From the sequence record PQ724394.1: 64,000 bases of DNA, one strand, 5' to 3'. This DNA is from a phage. A program made the translations under genes and the position numbers. Below the pieces are notes generated by a model that did not search any database, had not been told where the DNA came from, and worked only from the letters and a program-made list of their open reading frames with translations. Positions 3,458 to 25,737 of this stretch are shown here, in pieces; positions within the stretch are counted from its first letter, which is position 1, and every line of letters begins with the position of its first letter.

Positions 3458-3510
3458 TAACCTCCAGTAGTTGATAGGTCTATAGTATCATTTCTACTGG
3501 AGATGTAAAC
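3458..3510 (-). promoter_or_regulatory. PeSL-like early promoter cassette (GTTTAC -35, 17-nt spacer, TACTAT -10, inverted repeat CTCCAGTAG/CTACTGGAG, RBS)
   Basis: Minus-sense GTTTACATCTCCAGTAGAAATGATACTATAGACCTATCAACTACTGGAGG then ATG; conserved core shared with other copies. Confidence 0.65.
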
Positions 3511-3512
3511 AA

Positions 3513-3854
3513 CTAATAAAAACTTTTTTCACCGGCTTGCCCACTAAACCATGCGGATTGGGTGTTCTCTTTCCGTTGGTGTTCAATACGAATACGGTAT
3601 TCGTTCCTGATGGCGTAGAGTTCATCCCTGAAGTCGCCTGCCAACTTAACCTGCTTACGGTCTAGATTTATTAAGGCTTGGGTCTTCGCTGCCAAGAGCA
3701 GTCTCCTGTAGTCTCCTTCTTCACAATCGGTTTTATAAACTCTATTGGTATATCCGTCGATAACTTCCTTATCATAGTCCTCGACGGACCGTTTCATGGC
3801 TTTGGAAAAAGTCTGACCTGCATTAAAAAGATTGTAAATAAATTGTTCGAACAT
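3513..3854 (-). CDS. hypothetical protein (113 aa)
   Basis: ORF in gene array; no motif recognised. Confidence 0.5.
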   Translation of the reverse strand: MFEQFIYNLFNAGQTFSKAMKRSVEDYDKEVIDGYTNRVYKTDCEEGDYRRLLLAAKTQALINLDRKQVKLAGDFRDELYAIRNEYRIRIEHQRKENTQSAWFSGQAGEKSFY

Positions 3855-3864
3855 AATTTCACCT

Positions 3865-4845
3865 TTATTTCAGAAGTGTAACTTCAGCGATTTCGCTCCA
3901 GTCATTTTTATCGGTGGCAATGAAGTCCGCCAGATAAAGAGCCGTACGCAATGATACGTTACGAAGACGAGATACATTAGCCTTCATCCATGCTAAAGCT
4001 TGATAAGTCTCAGCATCAGTCAGACCTCGGTTTTGCATCATATCAGTGGACAGGATAACGTCTTCAACACGAACCATAATCTCTTCGTTCGAGTGAACTC
4101 CGAGGTCCAAGTAAACTGAACGAGATACTAAAGCCTGGAGGTGCGGAGCAAGTTTAGTACCACGTTCTAATTCACGGTCAATATCAACGTTGGTGATGAA
4201 CACGATGGTGCCTTCGTATTCGAATTCTTTATCGATATTTTTATCATCGAGATAAGAACTTGAAGTGCTCCAGCACACCTTACGTTTCTCTCCTGTATCC
4301 AACGCCGCTTTAAGAAGGTTCAGGATATCCATGTCAGAGAATACATCAACATCATCAATAAGAAGAACACTATTAGGGCCGCGGTTATTCCAAAGCTGCT
4401 CGTAAAGACCGATTCCACTAATCTTTCCGTTGATTGATTTATATTCGATAGTTTCATTTTCGTGGGCATTTTGTAATGCTTTATCCAAAGAGTATGTTTT
4501 ACCAATACCTGCGGCACCGGAGATGATAAGGGAACGAATTTTACCATCGATGATTCCGTTAGTCATCATGTTCATTACTTTAAAACGTTTGTTGATGCGG
4601 TGTTTCATTTCTTCGGCGGATTCAGTAATCACCGCAGGAGCTTCGGCACCTTCCATTTCGATGTCACATTTGAACACCCATACACCACGTTCAACACCAT
4701 CAATCTGTACAAATACCTTACCATCACCGAGATGAGCTTCGGATTCATGAATTTTATTAGGGAACCAGGTTTTACCTGAACTCATGAACGTACCAGAGAT
4801 TTCATTACCACGATAGATACCTTTGTTGATTTTGATAGTTAACAT
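3865..4845 (-). CDS. AAA+/P-loop ATPase (326 aa)
   Basis: Walker A GAAGIGKT, Walker B VLLIDDVD, sensor-like IVFITN; ATG at 4845 preceded by RBS GGAGAATAAA and a PeSL-like promoter. Confidence 0.6.
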   Translation of the reverse strand: MLTIKINKGIYRGNEISGTFMSSGKTWFPNKIHESEAHLGDGKVFVQIDGVERGVWVFKCDIEMEGAEAPAVITESAEEMKHRINKRFKVMNMMTNGIIDGKIRSLIISGAAGIGKTYSLDKALQNAHENETIEYKSINGKISGIGLYEQLWNNRGPNSVLLIDDVDVFSDMDILNLLKAALDTGEKRKVCWSTSSSYLDDKNIDKEFEYEGTIVFITNVDIDRELERGTKLAPHLQALVSRSVYLDLGVHSNEEIMVRVEDVILSTDMMQNRGLTDAETYQALAWMKANVSRLRNVSLRTALYLADFIATDKNDWSEIAEVTLLK

Positions 4846-4911
4846 TTTATTCTCCGTTTAACTCAGTAGATTTGATAGGTCCATAATAACATGCTCTACG
4901 AGAGTGTAAAC
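4846..4911 (-). promoter_or_regulatory. PeSL-like early promoter cassette (diverged core)
   Basis: Minus-sense GTTTACACTCTCGTAGAGCATGTTATTATGGACCTATCAAATCTACTGAG then GGAGAATAAAATG. Confidence 0.55.
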
Positions 4912-4928
4912 TCTTTTTTGCACTAAAC

Positions 4929-4952
4929 CCAAAAAAGGACCCCGAAGGGTCC
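4929..4952 (-). terminator. rho-independent terminator (GGACCC-UUCG-GGGUCC hairpin plus U-tract)
   Basis: Minus-sense GGACCCTTCGGGGTCCTTTTTT immediately downstream of the nucleotidyltransferase gene stop. Confidence 0.65.
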
Positions 4953-4961
4953 TAAATTTAG

Positions 4962-6002
4962 TTAACGGTAATAAGAGTTGTGGTTGTCAAGGTACACCTC
5001 TTCGACGAACTTGTCCCAGAACTTCATGTCCACCTTCGCAGGCATACCATTCTTAGCTGCCTGGATGGCCAGAACTTCAACTAAATCGACAGTATCTTCA
5101 AGAAGTTCTTGAACTTCTTTAAATGGTAATTCACCAGCTTTAATCAGCTTAATGATAGAGGCTTCACGCAATGGGAATACCAAGTCACCAGTTTGGTAGA
5201 TTTCCATCAATTGGTACCCGGCACGATAAGCATGGCTCAGAGCTTTCCAGTCAATACCTTCATTGGCTTCAGCCTTACGAGCACGTTCGCCATATTCGGC
5301 ATCGAGTTTATTCAGAGATTGCTTAAGCTCGACCAATGACAAAGTAGTTTGGTACTTACGTCCGAGGACAGTATAGAACGTTTGAGGACCTGTTTTCTCA
5401 TGGTTATGAAATACCCATTCGCAAAACTCGTTTTCAGGGAGCCTGTGCTTGATATCTTCTACCTTAGTCCGACGTAAACGATCCGGAATGCCTTCTTGAT
5501 AATCAACCCATTGTTCAGGAATCTGGTTAACAATTGCCAGTACACCACGCAGTGCAGCCAATCGAGAACCTTTAACACCATATTTAGAGGCTTGCTTACG
5601 GACGTACCCTAAATAGGCTTTCATGTTAGTTGTATAGAAACGCGAACGGTTATCTTGGATAAATTTCCATACATCAGGTAAATCAGATTTAACCACTAGT
5701 TCAGGTGGAGTGTGGAGCATATCCAGAGCAACGGTTTCGCCTTCAGCAGCCAGTTTAAAGAAATATTTCAGACTGTAAAGCTCATGGTCAACATCATCTT
5801 TAGTGTTTTTGGAAGCAGTGTTATTCGTATTCAGGTTGGTATGGTTCATTGCCGTACCTAACAGAATATCACGCGGATGCGGAACAAAGATTTCTTTAAA
5901 ATCGACATCAGATTCCGGAGTACTTGTTCCATAAAGATGGCTACCGAAGTAGCCTTTCATAACTGTTCTCATTCTTTGTTCTCGAAGTGAATTACAGGAC
6001 AC
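4962..6002 (-). CDS. Pol-beta-superfamily nucleotidyltransferase-like protein (346 aa)
   Basis: N-terminal GS-x10-DVD motif (YFGSHLYGTSTPESDVDF) typical of the nucleotidyltransferase fold; substrate unknown. Confidence 0.55.
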   Translation of the reverse strand: MSCNSLREQRMRTVMKGYFGSHLYGTSTPESDVDFKEIFVPHPRDILLGTAMNHTNLNTNNTASKNTKDDVDHELYSLKYFFKLAAEGETVALDMLHTPPELVVKSDLPDVWKFIQDNRSRFYTTNMKAYLGYVRKQASKYGVKGSRLAALRGVLAIVNQIPEQWVDYQEGIPDRLRRTKVEDIKHRLPENEFCEWVFHNHEKTGPQTFYTVLGRKYQTTLSLVELKQSLNKLDAEYGERARKAEANEGIDWKALSHAYRAGYQLMEIYQTGDLVFPLREASIIKLIKAGELPFKEVQELLEDTVDLVEVLAIQAAKNGMPAKVDMKFWDKFVEEVYLDNHNSYYR

Positions 6003-6421
6003 ATCTTAGATTTACGAGCTTTAATGTATTGGACGACGATATTTTCTTTAATTTCCTTTCCTTCACGTTTAGCTTTAATTCGTTCCCATTCCTTTTCTTC
6101 TCTACGGGCATCATACCATGCATGTAAATTCATCGCACCGAATGCTAAACCGATGGATAGCGCAATAATAAGAGCTATTGCAGTCAACCCTAAAACAAAC
6201 CCGAGGCTCAACAGAACGGGAGTACTTAATACAAAGAAATGCTCTAATACACCAGCGCCTGCAACAGTTAATCCAAAAAGCGTACTACCTACAACAACAG
6301 CACAAGCAAAACAAGCCCAAATCATTTTCCAGAAATAAGCACACAAAGAGTGCGGTCGAGAATGACTGTCATAAAAACGGTCGTGTAATTTAACGTGCCA
6401 AGAGTTTGAATTGATAATCAT
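5969..6421 (-). CDS. membrane protein (150 aa, multi-TM) with basic C-terminal tail
   Basis: Hydrophobic segments WACFACAVVVGSTLFGLTVAGAGVL and LLSLGFVLGLTAIALIIALSIGLAFGA; overlaps downstream gene by 34 nt. Confidence 0.5.
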   Translation of the reverse strand: MIINSNSWHVKLHDRFYDSHSRPHSLCAYFWKMIWACFACAVVVGSTLFGLTVAGAGVLEHFFVLSTPVLLSLGFVLGLTAIALIIALSIGLAFGAMNLHAWYDARREEKEWERIKAKREGKEIKENIVVQYIKARKSKMCPVIHFENKE

Positions 6422-6431
6422 AATATTTTCC

Positions 6432-6992
6432 TTAAGGGTTCATAGTTGGGATAACAGAGTTCAGATAAGAGACTAAAACTTTTAGCTCGTCTTTAGTAAA
6501 TACCACTTCATTTTCACCGTCGTGTCTTTGGGTCAAGGATAGCAAATCACGACCCTGGTGTTGATACACGGATAATTCGGTATCATAATCCAGTTCTTCT
6601 TCATCACCTTCAAATGTTTCACTAGAACGAATCACCGCATCTTGACCTGGAACTTTCCATTCAACTTCAGGCTTGCATTCTTCCTGGAACAGTTTAAAAA
6701 TACATTTAAAGAAATTACTAGAATTCCTAATGCTTAGACATTCCGTATCAGTTTCGATATTAAATCCGTCTTCATTTTTATAAATCTGGGCCCATACATC
6801 GTCGTTAATATCAAACGATGCTCTATGGCGTCCATCAAGATACCCATCTTTATCCAAAACCTTTAAATCATAAAGTGGTTTAATATCTTGGATAGTTAGT
6901 ACGATTTTATCGTCTTCTTGGCAAATCTCAATAGCATTATCAACTACTTCAGCGGTCAGTTCACCAAACAGCTCAGATGTTTCGATAATCAT
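6432..6992 (-). CDS. acidic hypothetical protein (186 aa)
   Basis: ORF in array; D/E-rich; no motif. Confidence 0.5.
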   Translation of the reverse strand: MIIETSELFGELTAEVVDNAIEICQEDDKIVLTIQDIKPLYDLKVLDKDGYLDGRHRASFDINDDVWAQIYKNEDGFNIETDTECLSIRNSSNFFKCIFKLFQEECKPEVEWKVPGQDAVIRSSETFEGDEEELDYDTELSVYQHQGRDLLSLTQRHDGENEVVFTKDELKVLVSYLNSVIPTMNP

Positions 6993-7002
6993 TTTTATTT
7001 CC

Positions 7003-7233
7003 TCAACGGTTATGTTTTAAAATACTATAAAGTTCTTCGACTTGGCTTGCATCCAGATAAATGACCTCGTCGTCTTGTTCCAGGACAATTCCACCTTTAA
7101 TAAGATTCCACTCTACCACTTCAACGGTCATATCATCACCAGAACCTGCTAATGTTTCAGGTTTCAAAACAATAACACCATCTTCAGAATTACCACTCGG
7201 GTCGTATAAACTCATCTCATGCTCCTGTGCCAA
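7003..7233 (-). CDS. hypothetical protein (76 aa)
   Basis: Small acidic ORF in co-directional array. Confidence 0.4.
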   Translation of the reverse strand: MAQEHEMSLYDPSGNSEDGVIVLKPETLAGSGDDMTVEVVEWNLIKGGIVLEQDDEVIYLDASQVEELYSILKHNR

Positions 7234-7469
7234 CAGTTACGTGGCTCACGTTTAAAAATTTCATCATGCATTGACTGACAACCTATACAGTATATCACAC
7301 CTTTGATAGCTTGACGTCGTGCTTCAGGAATCTCTTCATCACAATCAAAACAATATTTAGCCGATTCACGTTCAACTGCTACTTGCTTACGGGCGTGTAC
7401 TATAGCGGCCTGTACGACCGCTTCCATTTCGAGCTGTTCAGCTCCGTCCTTAGCAAATCCAACAGCCAT
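7212..7469 (-). CDS. TraR/DksA-family C4 zinc-finger protein (85 aa)
   Basis: CFDCDEEIPEARRQAIKGVIYCIGCQ matches the CxxC-x17-CxxC TraR/DksA zinc-finger pattern. Confidence 0.6.
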   Translation of the reverse strand: MAVGFAKDGAEQLEMEAVVQAAIVHARKQVAVERESAKYCFDCDEEIPEARRQAIKGVIYCIGCQSMHDEIFKREPRNCWHRSMR

Positions 7470-7651
7470 TATGCTTTCAACTCATTAAGATACTCAACCA
7501 AGGCTGCTTTAGAGTTAGCCAAATCTCGTTTACACTGCTCTATTCCGGAATACGAATAGCCTTCGCAATGTTCTACTGCAATATCATAAGAATCGCGTTC
7601 AACATCGCTAGCAAGTTTGATAATTTTCTCAATCTGTTCAGTAGTTAACAT
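7469..7651 (-). CDS. hypothetical protein (60 aa)
   Basis: Small ORF, start overlaps upstream stop. Confidence 0.4.
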   Translation of the reverse strand: MLTTEQIEKIIKLASDVERDSYDIAVEHCEGYSYSGIEQCKRDLANSKAALVEYLNELKA

Positions 7652-7655
7652 AATA

Positions 7656-7892
7656 TCACCAGTATTTGTTGATAGTAGAAATTAATTCTTGGGCTTGAGT
7701 GGTCTTCAGCTTACACCCACAACCCTTTAATGTGTCTTTAAGGAGCCATGGTTCCTTGAGCTCGTCCTTTTCTAGGCGAATTCTGTACCCTCGGTAGTCA
7801 GCAAATATACTTCGGTCGTCGAATATCTTAATCTCAAGGAGGTGGTTATTGATTTCGTATTCCAATGAAACCGTAGTACTTGTAAGTTTCAT
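7656..7892 (-). CDS. hypothetical protein (78 aa)
   Basis: ATG at 7892 preceded by GAGGAG RBS and a PeSL-like promoter. Confidence 0.5.
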   Translation of the reverse strand: MKLTSTTVSLEYEINNHLLEIKIFDDRSIFADYRGYRIRLEKDELKEPWLLKDTLKGCGCKLKTTQAQELISTINKYW

Positions 7893-7949
7893 ACTGTTCT
7901 CCTCATTAGTTGATAGGTCTATAGTATCACGTTCCTAGAGGATGTAAAC
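7893..7949 (-). promoter_or_regulatory. PeSL-like early promoter cassette
   Basis: Minus-sense GTTTACATCCTCTAGGAACGTGATACTATAGACCTATCAACTAATGAGGAG. Confidence 0.65.
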
Positions 7950-7957
7950 ACTAAAAC

Positions 7958-7984
7958 GAAAAAAGGTCCCACCGAAGTGAGACC
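7958..7984 (-). terminator. rho-independent terminator (UUCG-loop hairpin plus U-tract)
   Basis: Minus-sense GGTCTCACTTCGGTGGGACCTTTTTT downstream of the 7990..8376 gene. Confidence 0.6.
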
Positions 7985-7989
7985 TTTGA

Positions 7990-8376
7990 TTATTCTAACG
8001 TTAACAAATACTTAGTCTGGTAAAAGACACCAGTGATGTCGTCCAAAGTCGATTGGATGGCCTTAGGAAGATTTTTGTAGATTTTATCAGACGCTTTAAT
8101 AAGTTCATCAAGAAAATCTATGGGGTCTTTAGGCAGTTCTGAAGCAGATGGTAGTGATGCTTTATATTCTTTGCCACTAAATCCTAAATACTGTTCACTG
8201 AACTGGTCTAGTGGTCCTTGAACTTCTGTATAATAGAAGTCATATGCTTTGTGTCTTGCATAGCTTTTGGTTTCCAAATGGGCTGACTTAAAATAGGCTA
8301 AAGAAACCAACAGCCAGCCAATATAAGAATCTACTTCAGTCCCTCGACTAAGTACGAAATCATTGAATTTCATCAT
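7990..8376 (-). CDS. hypothetical protein (128 aa)
   Basis: ORF immediately downstream of the rI-like gene. Confidence 0.5.
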   Translation of the reverse strand: MMKFNDFVLSRGTEVDSYIGWLLVSLAYFKSAHLETKSYARHKAYDFYYTEVQGPLDQFSEQYLGFSGKEYKASLPSASELPKDPIDFLDELIKASDKIYKNLPKAIQSTLDDITGVFYQTKYLLTLE

Positions 8377-8653
8377 CTACCTTCATTAGTTTAGCGTATC
8401 GTTCTCCGATAGCCCGACCTTCAATCGAGCAAGACTCTATTGTATTGCAATTTGAAATTTTCCAAGAAGCAGTTACATAAGCCCAGTAGTCTTCGGAGGC
8501 CTTTACACTAGGTTTACTCATTTGCGCATAAACTGGCATCGCACTACTAGCAAAGGCGTCCATCAATTTAGGGTCGGATTTGTTTGCTAGTGAAGATGTT
8601 GGGCTTAAACATCCAATCATAAGGATACAAGCCACTGTACGGAAAATACCCAT
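8360..8653 (-). CDS. rI: rI-like lysis-inhibition regulator (97 aa, signal-anchored periplasmic protein)
   Basis: 97 aa, N-terminal hydrophobic segment, position two genes downstream of tk as in T4; C-terminal similarity to T4 RI from memory only. Confidence 0.45.
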   Translation of the reverse strand: MGIFRTVACILMIGCLSPTSSLANKSDPKLMDAFASSAMPVYAQMSKPSVKASEDYWAYVTASWKISNCNTIESCSIEGRAIGERYAKLMKVDDEIQ

Positions 8654-8746
8654 ACAAAAGTCCTTTGTTATTTTATACGAATTTGCCTTTCGGCCTTAAC
8701 CGATAGCGATTACCAAAAGCTAAAGCTCTACGGTTAGTATTACTAT

Positions 8747-9025: not shown

Positions 9026-9032
9026 AGTACCC

Positions 9033-9605: not shown

Positions 9606-9614
9606 ATTACCTTC

Positions 9615-11717: not shown

Positions 11718-11729
11718 GAGACCTCATTA

Positions 11730-12188
11730 TTAAAGATAGATTACTTTCGTGCTGGTTTTACCTTCTAAACGTTTAGAGTTAACAAATGCCATACGACATT
11801 TTAATGAATATCCTTTATCAGGATGTTTACGATCTACGGTCATACCCAACCATAAGGTTTTATCGGTAATCTCGAGACGCAGTGGACGATACACCTTACC
11901 TGGAATAATTTCAGATTCTACGTCAGGAAGAGGCTCCTGGATTAAAAATTCATGGATTTCTTTAACATGATTGTGGAGCTTCTTGAACAAAGAGAAAACA
12001 TATTTTTCGTCAATTTCACGTTGGATAGCACGGTCCAACAAGTGATTAGAGTACTTAATAAAGAAAGCTGGGACCCCGCTCTTAATGGCGGCTTTTTTGA
12101 TGGACGCGTTAAGTTCACGAAATTCGGTTTCGAACTGACGACGTAATTTGTTGCGGCGGATGAATACTTCTGAATTAATTTCTGACAT
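11730..12188 (-). CDS. regB: RegB site-specific endoribonuclease
   Basis: MSEINSEVFIRRNKLRRQFETEFRE... closely matches T4 RegB from memory; ATG at 12188 just downstream of a PeSL-like promoter; the ORF track extends upstream through the promoter. Confidence 0.75.
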   Translation of the reverse strand: MSEINSEVFIRRNKLRRQFETEFRELNASIKKAAIKSGVPAFFIKYSNHLLDRAIQREIDEKYVFSLFKKLHNHVKEIHEFLIQEPLPDVESEIIPGKVYRPLRLEITDKTLWLGMTVDRKHPDKGYSLKCRMAFVNSKRLEGKTSTKVIYL

Positions 12189-12245
12189 TTTGTAATCTCC
12201 TGTAGTTGATAGGTCTATAGTACCACGTCTACAGGAGATGTAAAC
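12189..12245 (-). promoter_or_regulatory. PeSL-like early promoter cassette
   Basis: Minus-sense GTTTACATCTCCTGTAGACGTGGTACTATAGACCTATCAACTACAGGAG; perfect 9-bp inverted repeat CTCCTGTAG/CTACAGGAG. Confidence 0.65.
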
Positions 12246-12250: not shown

Positions 12251-12529
12251 TTAGTATTTTTCCTCGGGTTGGAAAACGGAACGACAGGCCCACATGGATG
12301 CTTCTTTCAAGCGTTCGATTGCCGTGCGAATCTGGGCGAGACGTTCATGAGTGAGGTCGAATTCTTCACCACTCATTTTATCAACACCTGAGCATGTAAA
12401 GGCTTCAACGTATTCTTCTTCTAGTGCTTTAAAGATTAAGCCTAATCGAACTTCAGCATCTTTAATGGCATTCACTTTACTGATTTTATCGTCGGTATGT
12501 GGCTTGTAACCCTTGATATCTTCAATCAT
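12251..12529 (-). CDS. hypothetical protein (92 aa)
   Basis: ORF in array. Confidence 0.45.
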   Translation of the reverse strand: MIEDIKGYKPHTDDKISKVNAIKDAEVRLGLIFKALEEEYVEAFTCSGVDKMSGEEFDLTHERLAQIRTAIERLKEASMWACRSVFQPEEKY

Positions 12530-13704: not shown

Positions 13705-14064
13705 TTAAAGATGGTCAAGTGCTGGGTTGTGAGGTTTTTCTGCTTTAGTAGTGTTTTTGTGCCAATCTGATTTAGAGACACGAATTGCATCAGCGCCATA
13801 AGAACTCTTAAGGATGCCTTTTTTATTGTACACACTTACTGAAGTAAGAGAATCACCGTTCCAAGTAGCATGGACGAAGTTGGATTTAGATTTAAGCTCT
13901 TTAGCCAGGCTCTGATTAGTAGCCATAGAAGCAAAATCTTTACCCGTAACTTTAAAGACTTCAGACGGGTTCAGGCCTTCTTTAGCCTTAGCCAACTGTT
14001 CAGGCGACATACCTTCATTAATGCGTTGGGTAGATTCTGTAATAAATTCTTGATAAGTTTTCAT
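13705..14064 (-). CDS. internal-protein-like protein with capsid-targeting leader (119 aa)
   Basis: N-terminal MKTYQEFITE matches the T4 internal-protein capsid-targeting sequence; adjacent to denV/e as ipII/ipIII are in T4. Confidence 0.55.
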   Translation of the reverse strand: MKTYQEFITESTQRINEGMSPEQLAKAKEGLNPSEVFKVTGKDFASMATNQSLAKELKSKSNFVHATWNGDSLTSVSVYNKKGILKSSYGADAIRVSKSDWHKNTTKAEKPHNPALDHL

Positions 14065-14106
14065 ATTATTCCTTAAGTTGATAGAAGTATTCTATCACGG
14101 ATTTAA

Positions 14107-14523
14107 TTAAGCGTAAATAGCCTTGCCATAGTGTTTGTACCAGGTAGGACGTTGTGCAATTTTTTCATCCAAACGGGCTTGTGAAATAGCGATAGAAGCT
14201 TCGTGAGGAACATAATCACCACGGAATTCCTGAGGAATATCACTAATGTCCTGGACTGTAGTATCCTTGATATTAAAGCCACGTTTTAAACATTCAGCTA
14301 TAAGCTCAATTTGACGCTTACGTAAAAATTCAAGCTTATCATAAAAGAATGTAACATGGCCCGTACCAAGTATAAAAGTAGGGCTGATTTTAAAATCACG
14401 AACACGTTTACCGTTAGCAACATGCTTACGAACCGCACCGAAAACACGTGGTAATTCACGGTATTCAGCCATTAAGTGTTGGTCAGCCAATTCAGATACT
14501 AAGGTAAGGTTGATACGAGTCAT
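14107..14523 (-). CDS. denV: endonuclease V (pyrimidine-dimer DNA glycosylase)
   Basis: 138 aa, near-identical to T4 endonuclease V as recalled ([28 protein letters not shown]...). Confidence 0.9.
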
Positions 14524-14578
14524 TTTAATCTCCTGTAGTTGATAGGTCTATAGTATCATGCCTACTGGAGATGTAAAC
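14524..14578 (-). promoter_or_regulatory. PeSL-like early promoter cassette
   Basis: Minus-sense GTTTACATCTCCAGTAGGCATGATACTATAGACCTATCAACTACAGGAG upstream of denV. Confidence 0.65.
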
Positions 14579-15072: not shown

Positions 15073-15103
15073 AATTACCTCCTGATTATAGGAGGTATTT
15101 ATA

Positions 15104-17063: not shown

Positions 17064-17276
17064 TTACTTTTTGTTGAAAAAGTACATTTTACCTTTAGGG
17101 GATAAGGATACACGAAGTGCGTTACCGATACCAACTGAACATTTAACCAGGTCGGCAGATTTCAATTCACCAAATGCTTGACGAAGGTCACCGTCACGAG
17201 TGTTAACCATCAGGCATTTAGCACCAGCTGCACGAACTTCGTTTAACATGTTTATTGCTTGGTTAGAAAGTTTCAT
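17064..17276 (-). CDS. small hypothetical protein (70 aa)
   Basis: ATG at 17276 preceded by RBS GGAGAATAAA and a PeSL-like promoter; the ORF track extends upstream through the promoter. Confidence 0.5.
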   Translation of the reverse strand: MKLSNQAINMLNEVRAAGAKCLMVNTRDGDLRQAFGELKSADLVKCSVGIGNALRVSLSPKGKMYFFNKK

Positions 17277-17342
17277 TTTATTCTCCATTTCACTCTGTTG
17301 TTTTGATAGGTCTATAGTATCACACCTATAGACCTTGTATAC
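17277..17342 (-). promoter_or_regulatory. PeSL-like early promoter cassette (-35 variant GTATAC)
   Basis: Minus-sense GTATACAAGGTCTATAGGTGTGATACTATAGACCTATCAAAAC; 10-bp inverted repeat AGGTCTATAG/CTATAGACCT. Confidence 0.6.
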
Positions 17343-17354
17343 TGTTTTATGCAA

Positions 17355-18314: not shown

Positions 18315-18516
18315 AATATTTTCCTCATTAATAAAGACGAGTTACTTCATATTTACCCAGTTCAGATTTTTTTGCTTCAATACGCGTTGCGGCTAGATTA
18401 GCAGCCTCTAGTGAAGAAAATTGGACCACTTGGGAAGTATTCTGCCTTACGCCACCTTGTGGGTGAGTAACAAAAACAATAAGAACATTATACATAATAT
18501 TTTCCTCAGAGTAAAC

Positions 18517-18756: not shown

Positions 18757-18800
18757 AATGTTCTCCTCATGTTTGAGTAAGGTAATAGTAACACAAGTTT

Positions 18801-19130
18801 TTAGAGTTGTACATCACTTCTGCAATATTCTAAAAATAATTTATCGCTGTCTACTGTATCCCAACGTCTCCAAGATGGGTTCCAGACCAAAGCGTTGTCA
18901 CCACAATCATTGAGCTTAAAATGGTCATAGTACATAGCTATGTGTCTAGTCTCGTCACCAGAGAACCCTAGTATAGGCTCGCCATGGGTATGATACATAT
19001 GATGGTGCATTGAGAGGTCGCATTTATAAAACATCTCACGTTTACCACGGACGAACAAGAAAGCTTGTCCATTCATATAGAATTCTTTATCTGTTTTCAA
19101 AAGATATTTGAATACTGAATCTTTGTGCAT
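18801..19130 (-). CDS. His-rich hypothetical protein (about 109 aa)
   Basis: Start taken at ATG 19130 with strong GGAGG RBS, avoiding overlap with the upstream paralogue; HHHMYHTHGEP His cluster. Confidence 0.45.
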   Translation of the reverse strand: MHKDSVFKYLLKTDKEFYMNGQAFLFVRGKREMFYKCDLSMHHHMYHTHGEPILGFSGDETRHIAMYYDHFKLNDCGDNALVWNPSWRRWDTVDSDKLFLEYCRSDVQL

Positions 19131-19161
19131 AAGTCCTCCTACCACATCCTTGTGGTTATTA

Positions 19162-19386: not shown

Positions 19387-19395
19387 TTTTATTCC

Positions 19396-19626: not shown

Positions 19627-19635
19627 TTTATTACC

Positions 19636-19833: not shown

Positions 19834-19842
19834 AATATTTCC

Positions 19843-20124: not shown

Positions 20125-20133
20125 AGCTTTTCC

Positions 20134-20810: not shown

Positions 20811-21303
20811 TAAAGCGATTAAGCTTCCGTTGTTGTTTACGACTTTCTAATGTGTACTCAGCAGTTAAGATACCAAGCTCGGCTTTATCATAATTTTTAA
20901 TATCGGTGTAAGATGGTCGACGGTCGACCATTCCAAATACATCACCATTTTCTAAAGCCACATAGCATACTAAATGGTAATCATCGTCTGCTATATTAAG
21001 AAGCACACAATCATTGCTCTCATTTAAAGAATATACTGAATAACGTAGTCCAGCGAATTCCACTCGTTGAATAGCCAGATTTACGTCAATAATTTCCAAA
21101 GCATCTTCAAAAGAAAGGTCTTCAGCTAAAGCAAAAATAAAAGGTAATTTGGTAGTATCGCCACGGCTAGATGTTCTGCTTAAGAAATCGTTTGAATAGC
21201 CTAGGTCTTGGCGAATTCTATAAAGAACTGAATTGGTTTCATGGGAAAGACCACTATTTTTAAACCAATCAATATTTGATATAAGGTTATCATATAAACT
21301 CAT
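20761..21303 (-). CDS. hypothetical protein (180 aa)
   Basis: ORF in array. Confidence 0.5.
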   Translation of the reverse strand: MSLYDNLISNIDWFKNSGLSHETNSVLYRIRQDLGYSNDFLSRTSSRGDTTKLPFIFALAEDLSFEDALEIIDVNLAIQRVEFAGLRYSVYSLNESNDCVLLNIADDDYHLVCYVALENGDVFGMVDRRPSYTDIKNYDKAELGILTAEYTLESRKQQRKLNRFIAECREYAKEVQNGTA

Positions 21304-21326
21304 AATATTCTCCTCTCCTCCAAATA

Positions 21327-21344
21327 GGGAGACTTCGGTCTCCC
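21327..21344 (-). terminator. palindromic UUCG hairpin GGGAGAC-TTCG-GTCTCCC
   Basis: Perfect 7-bp stem hairpin between two minus-strand genes; identical 18-mer recurs at 59491..59508. Confidence 0.45.
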
Positions 21345-21351
21345 GGTAACA

Positions 21352-21945
21352 TTACTTAAGTGAATTGATGTAGTCTTCGATATCGGCTGAAGTCGTATCC
21401 ATTCCAACTTGAGGGCCTTTAAACGTTTCTACACGCATCAGTGTATCTTCAATATCAATCTTAGTCAGTGCAGCGATTTCAACAACGTCATCAGCAGTAG
21501 CAATACCAAGGGCGGCCATATTACGAGTTTCACGGATGTACTCGAGCTTAACGGCCAGTTCCTGACGAGAGTCATCAAGTTCCTTGACCTTCAGTTTAAT
21601 TTCATTACGCATTTCGATATAATCGTCAGCTTTCTTACGAAGTTGAGTAGCTGTACGACGATAAAGGAGGCCAAGTTTAGCATGCACCTGGACATCTGCA
21701 CCTTCTTTAATCAGTTTACGAATTTCGCGTTCTTTAGAAGCAGCCAGTTGGTCTTTTTCATTTGCCAATGCACGAATGCGTTTTTCTTCATTCACAGACT
21801 TAACATGAGCAGTCTGGAGTTCGGTAATTTTATCAATCAGGGTAGAAGCAGCTTTAGTATACTGGTCTTCGATTGACAGGTTCTGAGCCATCGCGGTACC
21901 CAGTTTAGAACGGATGAATTCAACAATTTTCTTTAAAGTATTCAT
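21352..21945 (-). CDS. coiled-coil protein, possibly PspA/IM30-like (197 aa)
   Basis: Start at ATG 21945 (MNTLKK) just downstream of promoter cassette; long heptad-like helical segments. Confidence 0.45.
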
Positions 21946-22018
21946 AGTATTTCCTTCAGTCGGTTGGTATTTTGTAATCCATGAGGACATTATACCCTGT
22001 CCTCTGAGGGTTGTAAAC
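21946..22018 (-). promoter_or_regulatory. early promoter with stem-loop, PeSL variant with canonical -10
   Basis: Minus-sense GTTTAC-N17-GTATAAT with inverted repeat GAGGACA/TGTCCTC bracketing the -10. Confidence 0.55.
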
Positions 22019-22020
22019 AT

Positions 22021-22419
22021 TTATTTCATTTTTGCGAGGCAAATTTCATTGGCTTCCCATTGAGCTTGCTTAATAATAGCTTTGGATACAGGAACCCTTT
22101 GGCCATAAGTTTTTGACGTTGAGAGAACAATATATTTGTTTGCCTCATTATGCCAACCTAGTGATTTTTCACCATGAGTACCTTTAATCACAGCTGACAC
22201 CTCAACAGAGCAACCACCATCAGAAATCTTGGTTTCTACAATCCATTCATTTCTCTCGACAGCTTCAATTTCCGATCTCCTTTTTTCTTCATACATGGCG
22301 GCCCAATCAGTTTTTGCCAAGCTGAAAGTAAGAGCTTTCTCTAATTCTTTGGCAGCTTTTTGTTGTTCGGGTGTTAATGAATTATACAACTCTTGCATTT
22401 CTTTATCTTCGATATTCAT
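22021..22419 (-). CDS. hypothetical protein (132 aa)
   Basis: ORF in array. Confidence 0.5.
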   Translation of the reverse strand: MNIEDKEMQELYNSLTPEQQKAAKELEKALTFSLAKTDWAAMYEEKRRSEIEAVERNEWIVETKISDGGCSVEVSAVIKGTHGEKSLGWHNEANKYIVLSTSKTYGQRVPVSKAIIKQAQWEANEICLAKMK

Positions 22420-22476
22420 TATGCTCTCCTCAAATTATAGGCTCATAATATCTCAATCATGAGCCCATGTAAACAA

Positions 22477-22740
22477 TTATTTCATATTATTGAAATAATC
22501 TTCCGCATCAAAATCGTTATCGTGATAAACTTTGGTAGACAATTTGACGTAACCTTCGGCAGCAAACATATTAACCACAACCTTTACGGTATACCATTGT
22601 CCATCATCATTACCCATTACTGCGTAAGTTTCAAATATGGGATGGTCATCACCTATAACCTTAATATCGTTAACAGTAGCACCAAATTCTTCAGGAACGC
22701 ATTTCATAAAGAAATTAAACAATTCACCGTAATTATCCAT
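22477..22740 (-). CDS. hypothetical acidic protein (about 87 aa)
   Basis: ATG at 22740 preceded by AAGGGGAG RBS and a PeSL-like promoter. Confidence 0.5.
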   Translation of the reverse strand: MDNYGELFNFFMKCVPEEFGATVNDIKVIGDDHPIFETYAVMGNDDGQWYTVKVVVNMFAAEGYVKLSTKVYHDNDFDAEDYFNNMK

Positions 22741-22804
22741 TTTACTCCCCTTCACACTGTTGTTTTGATAGGTCTATAGTATCACGTTTAAAGGAGGTGT
22801 AAAC
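22741..22804 (-). promoter_or_regulatory. PeSL-like early promoter cassette
   Basis: Minus-sense GTTTACACCTCCTTTAAACGTGATACTATAGACCTATCAAAAC. Confidence 0.6.
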
Positions 22805-22838
22805 AACTTTGTGAAATTATTTTTAGATTAAACCCCCT

Positions 22839-22858
22839 AAAAGGAGACCGAAGTCTCC
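22839..22858 (-). terminator. hairpin terminator candidate (GGAGAC-UUCG-GUCUCC)
   Basis: Minus-sense GGAGACTTCGGTCTCCTTTTAG downstream of the 22864..23481 gene. Confidence 0.45.
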
Positions 22859-22863
22859 TTTCA

Positions 22864-23481
22864 CTATTTACGAGTCTTTTCGAACTGAGCTGCGTCTCCG
22901 GCCAGACGACGTGCTTGACGAAGTTTGTTATCAATTTCTTCGCGCATAGGCTGGGTGTACTTAAGGCCTTCAACTGTCAGGTAAAGACGATAGAGGTCCG
23001 GCGTGTCCAGGTTGTTAATGTGTTGGCCGTTACGAAGGGCATTGAATTCACGAACAACCTGTTTTGTTTCAGATTCGATTTCTGAAATCAAAGAAGCTAG
23101 CTGGTTATATTTTTTAACAATAGTAGTGGTGTCAAACTTGATTTTAGATTTAGGAGCTTCTTTTACAGGCTCTGCTTTAGGCGCCGGTTTCGGTGCTGCA
23201 ACTTTGGTTGGGGCTGCTGGTTTAGCAACAGGAGCTTTAGCTGGTTTAGCAGGCTTAGTAGCGCCACCGGCTACGATATCTTTAAAAGCTTTGGAAGCTT
23301 TGTAATATTCTTTCTGGCTACTAGTATCAAAACCATACATATCATAAACGTTTTTAAAGAACTCAGTAGTGGTTTTAGTCCCGGAAATTTTATCATAAGC
23401 CGCTTGCCACATATCTTTAGTCATGCGCAAGCCGGCTTCACTCAGAACGCTTTCGTTCAAAAATTCATTGTAAGTTTTCAT
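22864..23481 (-). CDS. internal-protein-like protein with capsid-targeting leader and Ala/Pro/Lys-rich histone-H1-like region (205 aa)
   Basis: N-terminal MKTYNEFLNE leader; low-complexity PAKPAKAPVAKPAAPTKVAAPKPAPKAEP segment; TATAAATA late promoter upstream. Confidence 0.55.
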   Translation of the reverse strand: MKTYNEFLNESVLSEAGLRMTKDMWQAAYDKISGTKTTTEFFKNVYDMYGFDTSSQKEYYKASKAFKDIVAGGATKPAKPAKAPVAKPAAPTKVAAPKPAPKAEPVKEAPKSKIKFDTTTIVKKYNQLASLISEIESETKQVVREFNALRNGQHINNLDTPDLYRLYLTVEGLKYTQPMREEIDNKLRQARRLAGDAAQFEKTRK

Positions 23482-23509
23482 TATTGTTTCCTGTGTTAAT
23501 TAACTTATC

Positions 23510-23517
23510 TATTTATA
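23510..23517 (-). promoter_or_regulatory. late promoter TATAAATA (minus strand)
   Basis: Minus-sense TATAAATA about 30 nt upstream of the ATG at 23481. Confidence 0.55.
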
Positions 23518-23518
23518 C

Positions 23519-23546
23519 AAAAAAGGCCCAACCTTTTGGAAGGGCC
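23519..23546 (-). terminator. rho-independent terminator
   Basis: Minus-sense GGCCCTTCCAAAAGGTTGGGCCTTTTTT immediately downstream of the 23552..24106 gene. Confidence 0.6.
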
Positions 23547-23551
23547 GTAAA

Positions 23552-24106
23552 TCAGTTCTTGTAGAACCGGAACGGGTTCACGTGGAAGGCTAACATAGCT
23601 TTAGGGATTTTACGAGACAAAAGGCTCTTAAGCTTCCATCCACAGTACACGCGAAGGTAAAATGTGATTCCGCCGACCTTAAGATAAGGAACTGAAGCAA
23701 ATACACCCCAGGCATCATCATTCCACATCCATAACCAACCATGGTGGGCTTTATCAGGAGAACCTGATTCTACGTCAGGATTGCCGCGATAATGGAATTC
23801 TGAACTACAATCACGTCCTAGTTTATGATAAGCAAAGTTATAAGCTTTATTTCGCCATAGCCAAGCTACTCTCTGGAGATAAACACCACCAGGCATTTTC
23901 CTGATTTTAGCCCAACGTTTAATATGACCTTTATCGCCGTCAATTGGATTATCGTATGTCATCATCCAATCAAAACCGTATGGCAATTTACCAGTCTTTT
24001 TATTGTAGAAAGGAACCACAAAAGGCGCAAGGATAACAGCCAGAACCATAGAGATAAAATCTAGTGGGACCAACAGAATCCAACTCAAATATTTTAAAAG
24101 TTTCAT
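23552..24106 (-). CDS. membrane-anchored hypothetical protein (184 aa)
   Basis: N-terminal TM helix WILLVPLDFISMVLAVILAPFVV; flanked by two near-identical terminator/late-promoter modules. Confidence 0.5.
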   Translation of the reverse strand: MKLLKYLSWILLVPLDFISMVLAVILAPFVVPFYNKKTGKLPYGFDWMMTYDNPIDGDKGHIKRWAKIRKMPGGVYLQRVAWLWRNKAYNFAYHKLGRDCSSEFHYRGNPDVESGSPDKAHHGWLWMWNDDAWGVFASVPYLKVGGITFYLRVYCGWKLKSLLSRKIPKAMLAFHVNPFRFYKN

Positions 24107-24132
24107 ATTATTTCCTAAGTTAGTTTACTGTA

Positions 24133-24140
24133 TATTTATA
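24133..24140 (-). promoter_or_regulatory. late promoter TATAAATA (minus strand)
   Basis: Minus-sense TATAAATA upstream of the 23552..24106 gene. Confidence 0.55.
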
Positions 24141-24141
24141 C

Positions 24142-24169
24142 AAAAAAGGCCCAACCTTTCGGAAGGGCC
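24142..24169 (-). terminator. rho-independent terminator downstream of tRNA cluster
   Basis: Minus-sense GGCCCTTCCGAAAGGTTGGGCCTTTTTT; near-identical to the copy at 23519..23546. Confidence 0.6.
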
Positions 24170-24180
24170 TTTAACCTAGG

Positions 24181-24482
24181 GTAACCTTGTCGGGGTTCCA
24201 CCTGCTAGGCAAGTGTTTGTACGAAACGCCGGGATTCGAACCCGGTTATTAAGCAGTTGACGCTACTCAATATTTTTTTAAAAGGCCATATCTCGACCAT
24301 ATCCGAACGTTCCGTCAAAAACGCTACTCGGCTTACGGCAAAGATATTTCCTCGAATCGATAATTCGATGCGCCGTTTCAGCTGTGATAGTAAAGAACCA
24401 GAACACAGTAAAACTGTGGGAGGAACTATACTCCAGGGAACTTCAGTCCGACGACTTACCGGTAGCGACCCGGTTTCTTGTT
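24181..24482 (-). ncRNA. candidate structured stable RNA(s) or degenerate tRNA-like elements adjacent to the tRNA cluster
   Basis: No credible ORF; contains canonical T-arm-like CCGGG-TTCGAAT-CCCGG and several hairpins but no complete cloverleaf by hand. Confidence 0.25.
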
Positions 24483-24558
24483 TGGTCGAGACAGTAGGGA
24501 TCGAACCTACGACCCAGGACTTAGAAGGTCCTTGCTCTTCCTTCTGAGCTATGCCTCG
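24483..24558 (-). tRNA. tRNA-Arg (anticodon TCT)
   Basis: Hand-folded cloverleaf: acceptor CGAGGCA/TGTCTCG, anticodon loop CTTCTAA, T-arm GTAGG-TTCGATC-CCTAC, encoded CCA. Confidence 0.7.
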
Positions 24559-24562
24559 TATT

Positions 24563-24637
24563 TGGCGGACATGCATGGATTCGAACCATGGACCAATTGA
24601 TTAACAGTCAACTGCTCTACCGCTGAGCTACACATCC
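24563..24637 (-). tRNA. tRNA-Asn (anticodon GTT)
   Basis: Hand-folded cloverleaf: D-arm GCTC/GAGC, anticodon loop CTGTTAA, T-arm CATGG-TTCGAAT-CCATG, encoded CCA; acceptor stem has two G-U pairs. Confidence 0.6.
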
Positions 24638-24641
24638 GAAT

Positions 24642-24715
24642 TGGTGGCCCTGGGTGGAATCGAACCACCATCCAGCGATTATGAGTCGCTCGCTTGACCG
24701 TCCAGCTACAGGGCC
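24642..24715 (-). tRNA. tRNA with CAT anticodon (Met or lysidine-modified Ile)
   Basis: Hand-folded cloverleaf: acceptor GGCCCTG/CAGGGCC, anticodon loop CTCATAA, T-arm GGTGG-TTCGATT-CCACC, encoded CCA. Confidence 0.7.
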
Positions 24716-24800
24716 TTAATTCTATTATGAAAGGCTCTTTGAGGGAAGAACCTTTGGTAATAGAGGGTATTAATGATAGAGTAATAATATCACATAATTC

Positions 24801-25085
24801 TTAAAGCATATTAATGTAATCAAGTTTAATAGAAGCAATCTTCAAAGGATTTTTAAAGATGTCGTATTCGACCAACCCATTTTCATTTGCCGTATAAAAA
24901 GTAAAGTTAACAGAATTATAGCGTTGGCTGTTAACTTTGAGTTTAACATCGCTTGAACTACGGCCAATATTAACCTGTTGAACATCAAGCACAGCATCTT
25001 TGCCGTAATTTCGAATCAACAACTCAGCTGCAACCTGATCGGATTTATAGCCATTCTCTGGATTAGTAACCTTAACGTATAACAT
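24801..25085 (-). CDS. hypothetical protein (94 aa)
   Basis: ORF between tRNA cluster and ipI-like region. Confidence 0.45.
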   Translation of the reverse strand: MLYVKVTNPENGYKSDQVAAELLIRNYGKDAVLDVQQVNIGRSSSDVKLKVNSQRYNSVNFTFYTANENGLVEYDIFKNPLKIASIKLDYINML

Positions 25086-25490
25086 TTAACCCTCGTCTAC
25101 AATAGTGTGGGTATTGGCATTAACAATCTGCCACCAGCCAAAACGATTAGAACCGTAAAGAGGCTTATTCTCGTTTTCTTTAATGATATCGCGCAGTTCA
25201 TCTTCAGAGAAGGCTTTAGCGATTAAATCAGTATACCCACCGCGTGGATAATAATTATCACCCGCAAACAAAAGGAAATTTACCTTTCCGGAAGGAACAT
25301 ATGCTTCCTTAGGATACTTGTTTCCTGCATGGTCTACCACTTCAATATAACGGTAAGGAATATCAGTACTTTCAACCCATTGCCATGCTGCAGCAGGGGA
25401 TTCAAAAGCATCTACACCTAAACGATTATCTTCATCTTTAGACGGATTATTTTCGTAATCCGCATATACATAATATTCAATGTTCATCAT
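25086..25490 (-). CDS. hypothetical protein (134 aa)
   Basis: ORF in array. Confidence 0.5.
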   Translation of the reverse strand: MMNIEYYVYADYENNPSKDEDNRLGVDAFESPAAAWQWVESTDIPYRYIEVVDHAGNKYPKEAYVPSGKVNFLLFAGDNYYPRGGYTDLIAKAFSEDELRDIIKENENKPLYGSNRFGWWQIVNANTHTIVDEG

Positions 25491-25672
25491 TCACCTTTAG
25501 AGATTTTATCCATAACGAAAGAGATTGAACCAATTAAGAATGCCACTACTAAAGAGATTGTATTCTCGGAAGTTGTAAGCAAATCCAACATGAATCCTGC
25601 AAACATACTAAAGCCAAAAGCAGTAACGGCGGCCAGTGCAGTAACATTTCTAATTAATTCACAACGTTTCAT
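25487..25672 (-). CDS. small membrane protein (about 61 aa)
   Basis: ATG at 25672 preceded by GGAGAATAAA RBS and a PeSL-like promoter; two hydrophobic helices. Confidence 0.45.
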   Translation of the reverse strand: MKRCELIRNVTALAAVTAFGFSMFAGFMLDLLTTSENTISLVVAFLIGSISFVMDKISKGE

Positions 25673-25737
25673 TTTATTCTCCAATCACTCATTTGTTTTG
25701 ATAGGTCTATAGTATCATGCCTATAGACCTTGTAAAC
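25673..25737 (-). promoter_or_regulatory. PeSL-like early promoter cassette
   Basis: Minus-sense GTTTACAAGGTCTATAGGCATGATACTATAGACCTATCAAAAC; inverted repeat AGGTCTATAG/CTATAGACCT. Confidence 0.65.

Follow-up and report, generated by a model that had tools for sequence, protein, structure and literature searches.

Early promoter cassettes in a Dhakavirus genome carry selected stem-loops that probably act on read-through RNA

The 64,000-nt stretch of sequence record PQ724394.1, referred to here as the window, comes from a T4-type phage of the genus Dhakavirus (JS98/JS10-like; G+C content 40%). It carries 14 copies, and one degenerate copy, of a minus-strand cassette in which an early promoter and a short leader with a Shine-Dalgarno (SD) sequence run directly into the ATG of an open reading frame (ORF), and which resembles the promoter-early stem-loop (PeSL) elements of other T4-type phages. 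Here we describe the anatomy of these cassettes, the selection for pairing within them, a sense-strand signature of that pairing and its mutual exclusivity with intrinsic terminators. The best explanation, to which we assign a probability of about 0.6, is that they are self-contained early cassettes of the PeSL type whose hairpin acts on read-through RNA. Cassettes are named below by their upstream end, as listed with the individual features.

Cassette census and anatomy

A search for the 17-nt core TACTATAGACCTATCAA with up to three mismatches returned nine sites (3471, 4872, 7910, 12206, 14539, 17303, 22765, 25698 and 59809), all on the minus strand, against 0.21 expected (0 of 100 shuffles reached nine). 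In a scan for the promoter itself (GTTTAC, 17-18 nt, TAnnnT), the -35 was matched exactly 14 times on the minus strand and once on the plus strand. An earlier note on this DNA, made from its sequence, had listed eleven copies and a degenerate one near 18757; the described element is present on the minus strand in all 12 intervals, within a few bases, and the degenerate copy spans 18757-18814. The list was incomplete, as three cassettes of the same build (-35 at 837, 14118 and 22474) had been missed, among them the one with the strongest hairpin in the stretch (22474). The conserved core, which the note ascribed to all eleven copies, is found in nine of them; those at 21946..22018 (TATAATGTCCTC) and 63817..63874 (TACTATTGAATAGTCAA) share the architecture but have a different discriminator.

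Read on the minus strand, the order of parts is AT-rich DNA, a -35 GTTTAC, a spacer, a TG-extended -10, a short leader, a GGAG SD and the ATG. The 25 nt upstream of the -35 are 52-92% A+T (most 64-92%), compared with 60% for the whole stretch. By the indexing of the earlier note the spacer measures 17-18 nt; it ends in TGn, forming an extended -10, and the -10 itself is TACTAT, TATAAT or TATTAT. In most copies this is followed by an invariant 11-nt sequence, AGACCTATCAA, which occurs in 8-9 copies per genome. The leader, measured from the predicted start, is 18-37 nt long, and GGAG or GAGG is found 5-10 nt before the ORF-opening ATG in every cassette. The AT-rich stretch would be UP-like and the promoter of the T4 sigma70 type, with a start predicted about 7 nt past the -10 (the A of ATCAA), leading into the 18-37-nt leader, GGAG SD and ATG. 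The core, for example at 3475-3489 on the minus strand ((c)ATGATACTATAG), also reads as a three-codon mini-ORF, ATG ATA CTA TAG, which could be coincidence.

Selection for pairing

The earlier note had quoted four complementary arm pairs as flanking the core. All four pairings are correct, but in two of them (AGGTCTATAG/CTATAGACCT and GAGGACA/TGTCCTC) the 3' arm is the -10/discriminator itself, and there are therefore two different stem registers. In register A the spacer pairs with the leader and SD, as in CTCCAGTAG/CTACTGGAG, CTCCTGTAG/CTACAGGAG and CTCCATTAG/CTAATGGAG, and with the unrelated arms AATTCTC/GAGAATT at 63874. In register B the partner of the spacer is the discriminator together with the end of the -10; besides the two pairs just named, examples include GGGCTCAT/ATGAGCCC, GGTAGGACT/AGTCCTACC, ACAGGGTAAT/ATTACCCTGT and TGGTACAGGT/ACCTGTACCA, and at least ten unrelated arm sequences occupy this same register. 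A GUGA loop of the GNRA tetraloop type, derived from the TGn of the extended -10, caps the register B stem in several relatives; this could be coincidence.

Compared with dinucleotide shuffles, folding is individually significant in six of the 14 cassettes (3510, 12245, 14578, 17342, 22474 and 25737; z -2.7 to -4.1), the remaining cassettes giving z-scores of -1.5 to +0.2. A seventh hairpin, the 7-bp stem of 22018, is visible only on folding the short promoter segment. Seven cassettes thus have embedded stem-loops, and three others (4911, 7949 and 22804) have an upstream terminator. About half of all cassettes are hairpin-less, notably the CTTTAAAC spacer class. A -35/spacer hairpin (GTTTA/TAAAC) was considered for this class, and as it amounts to five A-U-rich pairs at about -1 kcal/mol the class was counted as hairpin-less.

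For a larger sample, exact occurrences of the core were collected from IMG/VR (73 loci, mostly from about ten Dhakavirus genomes), five annotated relatives were added, and promoter cassettes were then taken regardless of the core, which gave 129 and later 170 unique sequences. Each 5' half was joined to every 3' half, and pairing of a cassette's own halves (cis) was compared with that of the chimeras (trans). Among 74 de-duplicated elements the mean free energy (dG) was -11.0 kcal/mol in cis and -8.0±0.3 kcal/mol in trans (z = -10.4, 0 of 20,000 permutations). The preference is seen in register B (n = 21, one per distinct discriminator and spacer; z = -6.4, 0 of 20,000) and in register A (n = 26, identical core; z = -3.6, 7 of 20,000). 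Pair counts in 55 core-bearing sequences also support register A, where 69.7% of cells are paired, compared with 31-43% in slid registers, and where double-sided changes number 62, compared with 35±7 in shuffles (0 of 500). The same count is uninformative for register B, since the 3' side of a core-bearing alignment is invariant by construction, and the cis/trans test was used in its place. Between orthologues of the trna.4 cassette there is a compensated T-A to G-C change, AGGTCT/AGACCT here and AGGGCT/AGCCCT in five relatives. The embedded inverted repeat is a selected structure. The covariation seen by the earlier note holds, and much more strongly with the relatives added, with the qualification that there are two registers and that about half of the cassettes are hairpin-less.

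Raw counts overstate independence, as many copies are orthologues or recent paralogues, and together with the hairpin-less half of the cassettes this would fit a complementarity without function, left by common ancestry, gene conversion or templated 'quasi-palindrome correction' during replication. Such an origin is very improbable. It does not lead one to expect so many unrelated arm sequences at one register, own arms that outperform chimeras after de-duplication, or compensated changes between orthologues; a neutral process would likewise not be expected to yield the G·U-only spectrum, nor a hairpin associated, in two phage lineages, with the lack of a terminator, both described next.

Sense-strand signature and exchange with terminators

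The non-Watson-Crick positions of 56 distinct stems comprise 24 G·U as read on the sense strand, no A·C and six others, compared with 28 G·U, 33 A·C and 120 others in trans chimeras scored in the same way; base composition therefore does not account for the G·U bias. Neither a cruciform nor an antisense RNA would tolerate such positions. Strong hairpins (-12 kcal/mol or below) are also distributed according to the presence of a canonical intrinsic terminator within 90 nt upstream. They occur in 2 of 25 elements with such a terminator and in 58 of the 97 without (Fisher p = 2e-6), or, with one vote per downstream gene, in 1/17 versus 34/57 (p = 7e-5). Three cassettes of the window have an upstream terminator (4936-4953, 7962-7987 and 22833-22846); they lie 40-59 nt from the preceding stop codon and fold weakly, and the seven hairpin cassettes lie 2-12 nt from theirs. 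RB49 shows the same pattern: of 36 promoters found with its own promoter consensus in the outer two thirds of the genome, the nine with a terminator had a mean dG of -3.7 and the 27 lacking one a mean of -11.0 (p = 0.002). Taken together, the G·U bias and the terminator exclusivity indicate that the structure most likely acts in sense RNA that arrives from an upstream promoter and reads through the cassette promoter. Because the promoter spacer, which holds the 5' arm, precedes the start predicted for the cassette itself, the stem is impossible in RNA from that promoter.

A competing explanation is that the embedded stem-loops are true terminators or attenuators which halt or thin out polymerases arriving from upstream and leave each gene dependent mainly on its own promoter, the effects of register A on the SD and RegB site being incidental. 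Mutual exclusivity with canonical upstream terminators and the position of the stem right after the upstream stop codon both fit this explanation, and a sense-strand G·U bias is equally expected of a terminator hairpin. What it does not fit is the sequence after the stems: no embedded hairpin leads into a U-tract, its 3' arm being followed instead by ATCAAAAC, TATCATGA, TACAAAAT or ATGGATTA, and the hairpins that a terminator scan picks up beside the cassettes are solely the separate upstream ones at 4936-4953 and 7962-7987, to which our own scan adds 22833-22846. Judged by sequence, canonical intrinsic termination by the embedded stems appears unlikely. Termination or attenuation in a broader sense is a serious competitor, if still a rather unlikely one.

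Predicted masking of the Shine-Dalgarno sequence and the RegB site

The probability that the SD is unpaired was predicted for the transcript from the cassette's own start and for the read-through transcript. It falls from 0.28 to 0.00 at 3510, from 0.26 to 0.00 at 12245, from 0.37 to 0.01 at 837 and from 0.51 to 0.03 at 63874. In register B it is predicted to be unchanged (0.95 to 0.97 and 0.75 to 0.74). The geometry of register A, with a 23-nt interior and a 3' arm exactly on the SD in four unrelated arm haplotypes, is left unexplained if the stems are simply terminators.

A similar arrangement is known from T4 gene e and I-TevI, where the SD likewise forms part of the 3' arm and the promoter's start is preceded by the 5' arm (PMC3014915), and where transcripts from far upstream are translationally silent and those from the internal promoter are open (Uzan & Miller 2010, PMC3014915). 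This mask geometry is predicted for register A only (3510, 12245 and 63874, and weakly 837 and 14578), not for register B. The internal promoter of gene e and I-TevI is late and the mask imposes late timing, whereas register A combines an early sigma70 promoter with an early transcription unit; by analogy, its mask would leave the temporal class unswitched and make expression depend on the promoter from which the RNA came, probably restricting it to the immediate-early window. Gene e of this phage (14584..15072) has a classical T4-type translational mask of its own at 15076-15103 on the minus strand, a prototype for register A, with a late promoter (TATAAATA) and then the hairpin TACCTCCT-ataatc-AGGAGGTA, the 3' arm being the SD (dG -14.3).

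The 'fixed RBS' (ribosome-binding site) to which the earlier note saw the stems coupled, GGAGAATAAAA, has an explanation that was absent from that note, as it matches the RegB/S1 cleavage consensus. Strong RegB/S1 sites have the consensus GG*AGRAYARAA (PMC3014915), and GGAGAATAAAA agrees with it at 11 of 11 positions in three cassettes (4843-4855, 17274-17286 and 25670-25682). GGAG precedes 9 of the 11 cassette genes and 7 of 52 other early-region genes (p = 2e-5), and at least nine of the 11 consensus positions are matched by 7/11 and 2/52 of these genes, respectively. Among cassette RBSs, those at these three sites included, GGAGAATAAAATG fits GGAGRAYARAA 11/11, and GGAG is mostly restricted to genes that come first behind an early promoter. 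The cassette RBS is thus a predicted RegB target in a phage which encodes regB (11730-12188, by alignment to annotated relatives), itself behind cassette 12245 with a GGAG SD. This recalls T4 RegB, which cuts its own SD (PMC3014915); the difference is that the register A site would be double-stranded in read-through RNA, a state that is protective in T4 (PMC3014915). Because secondary structure protects RNA from RegB (PMC3014915), register A would by analogy also shield the RBS junction in read-through RNA.

Proposed mechanism

In the proposed scheme, host RNA polymerase would fire the cassette promoters immediately after infection, and phage RegB would later cut the SD and shut the gene off, the GGAG SD fitting GGAGRAYARAA in most copies and the GGAGAAUAAAA leaders being the proposed RegB/S1 substrates. 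The hairpin would form only in sense transcripts from an upstream promoter, and, in cassettes that follow closely on the preceding stop codon (2-12 nt), would stand in for an intrinsic terminator. In register A, read-through RNA would have its RBS and RegB site locked in a 9-11-bp stem plus an inner 5 bp, and RNA from the cassette's own promoter would stay open. In register B, whose 3' arm is made up of the discriminator and the end of the -10, the SD would remain unmasked and the hairpin would come to lie at the 3' side of the upstream cistron; there it would most likely be an attenuator, or a barrier to 3' exonucleases after cleavage of the leader, insulating neighbouring cistrons.

Several observations weigh against this scheme. 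Seven of the 14 cassettes are without a significant hairpin and four of these (837, 14118, 59849 and 63874) are also without a terminator, so the device is not obligatory. The denV cassette tolerates a central mismatch with which the predicted masking is largely lost (0.29 to 0.25). It is chimeric, with a 5' arm of the nrdC.8 type (CTCCAGTAG) and a 3' arm of the regB type (CTACAGGAG), and four denV orthologues carry the matching 5' arm CTCCTGTAG; the mismatch may have arisen by point mutation or by conversion from another cassette. No more than 3-4 independent arm haplotypes represent strong register A pairing. Of the G·U events, an estimated 10-12 are independent, and G·T is the least destabilising mismatch in single-stranded DNA. 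Terminators and hairpins could exclude each other partly because there are two cassette lineages, and not because one functionally substitutes for the other. Promoter activity, the position of the start (+1) and cutting by RegB are inferred from T4, and SD masking and the biochemical action of register B are likewise predictions. Finally, the only experiment on such a stem-loop, in RB49, gave terminator-like activity, reducing expression of a downstream lacZ about as much as rrnB T1 (PMC2839356), which for register B favours termination.

It may tentatively be suggested that, across T4-type phages, the promoter-embedded stems of PeSLs are RNA insulators acting only on read-through transcripts, and not terminators. 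If so, promoter, insulator and timed RBS would travel together in each cassette as one portable unit: RNA started at the cassette would be translated until RegB silences it, RNA arriving from upstream would be kept translationally silent and RegB-resistant at the junction (register A), and a protective 3' hairpin would cap the upstream cistron (register B). This would explain how cassettes can be shuffled between contexts without disturbing expression.

The PeSL concept has so far come from two papers and essentially one reporter experiment, and an independent phage lineage now gives statistical evidence that the stem-loop is selected, on the sense strand, and as an alternative to an upstream terminator. 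Should the RNA-level reading be true, a dense phage genome would control dozens of tiny early genes individually, through the promoter of origin, a RegB-timed ribosome site and insulation, with the genes still movable as modules, and this would be useful for the annotation of T4-type genomes and the design of portable expression units.

Relation to known systems

A PeSL combines an AT-rich upstream region and a sigma70-type early promoter with one stem-loop of variable position, followed by an SD and an ATG (PMC2839356, PMC4122927). Such elements are repeated in the hyperplastic regions of RB49/phi1, PST/T4 and nt-1/KVP40 (Arbiol 2010, PMC2839356; Comeau 2014, PMC4122927), each having a single stem-loop at one of five positions (PMC2839356, PMC4122927). 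In RB49/phi1, promoter and terminator/attenuator activity and mini-circles were found by reporter fusions, transcript mapping and inverse PCR (PMC2839356). JS98-type phages are mentioned in passing in that work, for the g43 locus (PMC2839356), and apart from this one sentence in Arbiol 2010, no account of the elements in phages of the JS98 type turned up in our searches of the literature.

The PeSL-like reading proposed in the earlier note agrees with every PeSL feature testable from sequence. The window has the same composite in many co-oriented copies between small genes of a hyperplastic region, with a stem-loop either upstream of the -35 (terminator-like) or within the promoter and overlapping the -10, and some copies flank indels. 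In our own scan RB49 likewise has spacer-to-discriminator hairpins, terminator exclusivity and a similar GGAGAATCAAA RBS, and its exclusivity result, which agrees with the single stem-loop per PeSL in the published sets, supports PeSL membership rather than novelty. The cassettes differ from published PeSLs in having GTTTAC/TACTAT and an invariant 17-19-nt core instead of TTGACA/TATAAT, arms of mixed sequence rather than Gn...Cn and no U-tract after the embedded stems; register A, in which the spacer and SD pair across the -10 and start, falls outside the five published stem-loop positions. The promoter resembles the T4 early promoter in its -35 (TTTACA), its -10 (TACTAT, which fits TAYWAT), the TG extension and the A/T-rich upstream DNA, the consensus for T4/PST PeSL promoters being TTTACW-N17-TAYWAT (PMC4122927). 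The invariant AGACCTATCAA after the -10 is a difference, as the generic consensus does not require it. The elements therefore belong to the PeSL kind already described, to which they add one undescribed stem register without amounting to a new type of system. What is new is quantitative and concerns selection of the stem, the stem's sense-strand signature and exchangeability for a terminator, the SD mask and the RegB-type RBS.

Gene shuffling

A total of 27 kb of the window was compared with five relatives for indels and replacements of at least 100 nt. Among 46 distinct events a cassette lies at the edge in 13-15 when this genome is considered and in 16 when either genome is. This is a strong enrichment against a uniform null (p = 4e-5), but it vanished against a gene-boundary null: across the five relatives, cassettes are not significantly enriched over other gene boundaries (10/44 vs 16%, p = 0.17). 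The link to modular gene shuffling mentioned in the earlier note is therefore only partly borne out: clean cassette-flanked indels exist, but a cassette is touched in 16/46 events, not significantly more often than gene boundaries in general.

In KIT01, a 482-nt insertion is flanked by an 84-nt duplicated cassette (25667-25750). Insertions of 187-222 nt in SP18 and IME08 are accompanied by a duplication of 16-22 nt of the leader (7877-7908), internal-protein (ip) genes with cassettes of their own, between one and three in number, are added at 14527/14599, and an insertion of 209 nt at 12251 ends precisely where the -35 begins. One and the same gene can, moreover, have different promoter modules in front of it: at least five cassette variants precede the 119-aa ORF (ATG 14064) among relatives, and two each precede e.6 and denV.

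These cases bear on a role at the DNA level, in which cruciforms or hairpins would tune promoter opening or be cut by endonuclease VII and the cassettes would be recombination hot spots. The cassette-edged events, the different cassettes before one gene in different phages and the mapping of RB49 crossovers within the loop (PMC2839356) are in its favour. A cruciform, however, needs pairing on both strands, which the 24 G·U and 0 A·C contradict, and a DNA structure gives no reason for the hairpin to be lost where an RNA terminator lies upstream. Breakpoints, moreover, are not significantly enriched over other gene boundaries, and homology in the 17-19-nt core and RBS is sufficient as an explanation of exchange, as a repeat of the RBS alone flanks one indel. 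We therefore consider a DNA role improbable, and hold to action on read-through RNA.

The indel just mentioned involves a 55-aa ORF (18328..18495) which is absent from AnYang, IME08 and KIT01; it is flanked by a 16-nt direct repeat, TGAGGAAAATATTATG, consisting of the RBS and ATG, with no promoter cassette. A perfect GTTTAC-N18-TATAAT (18516..18487), whose status is ambiguous, lies over the start of this ORF. Plain short homology is apparently enough for exchange, and conserved ribosome sites alone can apparently mediate gene gain or loss.

Individual features and genomic context

Gene names are taken from alignment offsets to the annotated relatives AnYang, IME08 and KIT01, and features are listed by position.
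777..837, minus strand: cassette of nrdC.4 (ATG 779); GTTTAC-N18-TATAAT, SD GAGGAG; no significant hairpin (z -1.2).
3453..3510, minus strand: cassette of nrdC.8 (ATG 3455); register A, dG -18.3, z -3.6.
3494-3504 / 3460-3470, minus strand: arms of the nrdC.8 cassette, ATCTCCAGTAG / CTACTGGAGGT; inner stem TGATA/TATCA; SD GGAG within the 3' arm.
4843..4911, minus strand: cassette of nrdC.10 (ATG 4845); -10 TATTAT, core with two mismatches; no significant embedded hairpin (z -0.9).
4843-4855, minus strand: RBS of nrdC.10 including the ATG, GGAGAATAAAA; RegB consensus 11/11.
4936..4953, minus strand: canonical intrinsic terminator, AGGACCCTTCGGGGTCCT then TTTTTGGG, 24 nt upstream of the -35 of cassette 4911.
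7890..7949, minus strand: cassette of a 78-aa ORF (ATG 7892); exact core, z -0.2; only a weak, bulged register A pairing (CCTC..TAG / CTA..GAGG).
7962..7987, minus strand: intrinsic terminator with an 11-bp stem and UUCG loop, then TTTCGTTT, 12 nt upstream of the -35 of cassette 7949.
12186..12245, minus strand: cassette of regB (11730..12188); register A, dG -18.3, z -3.8.
12229-12239 / 12195-12205, minus strand: arms of the regB cassette, ATCTCCTGTAG / CTACAGGAGAT.
14062..14118, minus strand: cassette of the 119-aa ORF (ATG 14064); weaker promoter ATTTAC-N18-TAGAAT, z -1.5.
14521..14578, minus strand: cassette of denV (14107..14523); register A with a central A·A mismatch, arms 14562-14572 / 14528-14538, z -2.7.
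17274..17342, minus strand: cassette of a 70-aa ORF (ATG 17276); -35 GTATAC; register B, dG -15.4, z -3.1.
17326-17335 / 17308-17317, minus strand: arms of cassette 17342, AGGTCTATAG / CTATAGACCT; RBS GGAGAATAAAA (17274-17286), RegB 11/11.
18757..18814, minus strand: degenerate copy (ATG 18756); -35-like ATGTAC at 18809-18814, -10 TACTAT at 18785-18790, SD GAGGAG.
21943..22018, minus strand: cassette of e.6 (ATG 21945); GTTTAC-N18-TATAAT; register B, discriminator not the core.
21998-22004 / 21983-21989, minus strand: arms of the e.6 cassette, GAGGACA / TGTCCTC.
22417..22474, minus strand: cassette of a 132-aa ORF (ATG 22419); strongest register B, dG -17.8, z -4.1.
22456-22468 / 22437-22449, minus strand: arms of cassette 22474, ATGGGCTCATGAT / ATTATGAGCCTAT, with two G·U pairs.
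22738..22804, minus strand: cassette of e.8 (ATG 22740); exact core, CTTTAAAC-class spacer; no significant hairpin (z -0.7).
22833-22846, minus strand: weak terminator-like hairpin upstream of cassette 22804.
25670..25737, minus strand: cassette of trna.4 (ATG 25672); register B, arms 25721-25730 / 25703-25712, dG -16.5, z -3.8.
25670-25682, minus strand: RBS of trna.4, GGAGAATAAAA; RegB consensus 11/11.
59788..59849, minus strand: isolated cassette of an 88-aa ORF between late genes 23 and 24; core with one mismatch, no hairpin (z +0.2).
63814..63874, minus strand: cassette of a 70-aa ORF, followed by rnlB; register A-like, covers the SD, z -1.0.
63851-63861 / 63820-63830, minus strand: arms of cassette 63874, AATTCTCATGT / ACAAGAGAATT, unrelated in sequence to the other arms (AATTCTC/GAGAATT).

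The first 25 kb of the window align with AnYang, KIT01, IME08 and JS10 at 91-95% identity and, from the annotated relatives, correspond to the hyperplastic region nrdC - tk - vs - regB - denV - ip - e - nudE - e.x - tRNA - 57, in which transcription runs on the minus strand. Twelve cassettes are located within its nrdC-tk-regB-denV-e-tRNA part (1-26 kb) and precede nrdC.4, nrdC.8, nrdC.10, regB, denV, e.6, e.8, trna.4 and several small unknown ORFs. The other two stand beside plastic genes of the structural region, one serving the 88-aa ORF between late genes 23 and 24 and one the 70-aa ORF before rnlB.

In a search of Rfam 15 at the gathering threshold no family matched at the cassettes, the only hits being three adjacent tRNA genes at 24486-24715 on the minus strand (63-71 bits). 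Relatives have two or three tRNAs at this spot, and its flanks are rich in indels. The genome OM386655 (phage vB_EcoM_ESCO10) was unusable for annotation transfer, as its GenBank product names are shifted or mis-assigned along the genome, with small early ORFs labelled 'terminase large subunit' and 'baseplate hub'. In the structural region, gp23 (57915-59474) is followed by two tandem gp24-like paralogues (59892-61175 and 61175-62455, plus strand), and it is between genes 23 and 24 of this block (57915-62455) that the minus-strand 88-aa ORF is inserted with its own early-promoter cassette.

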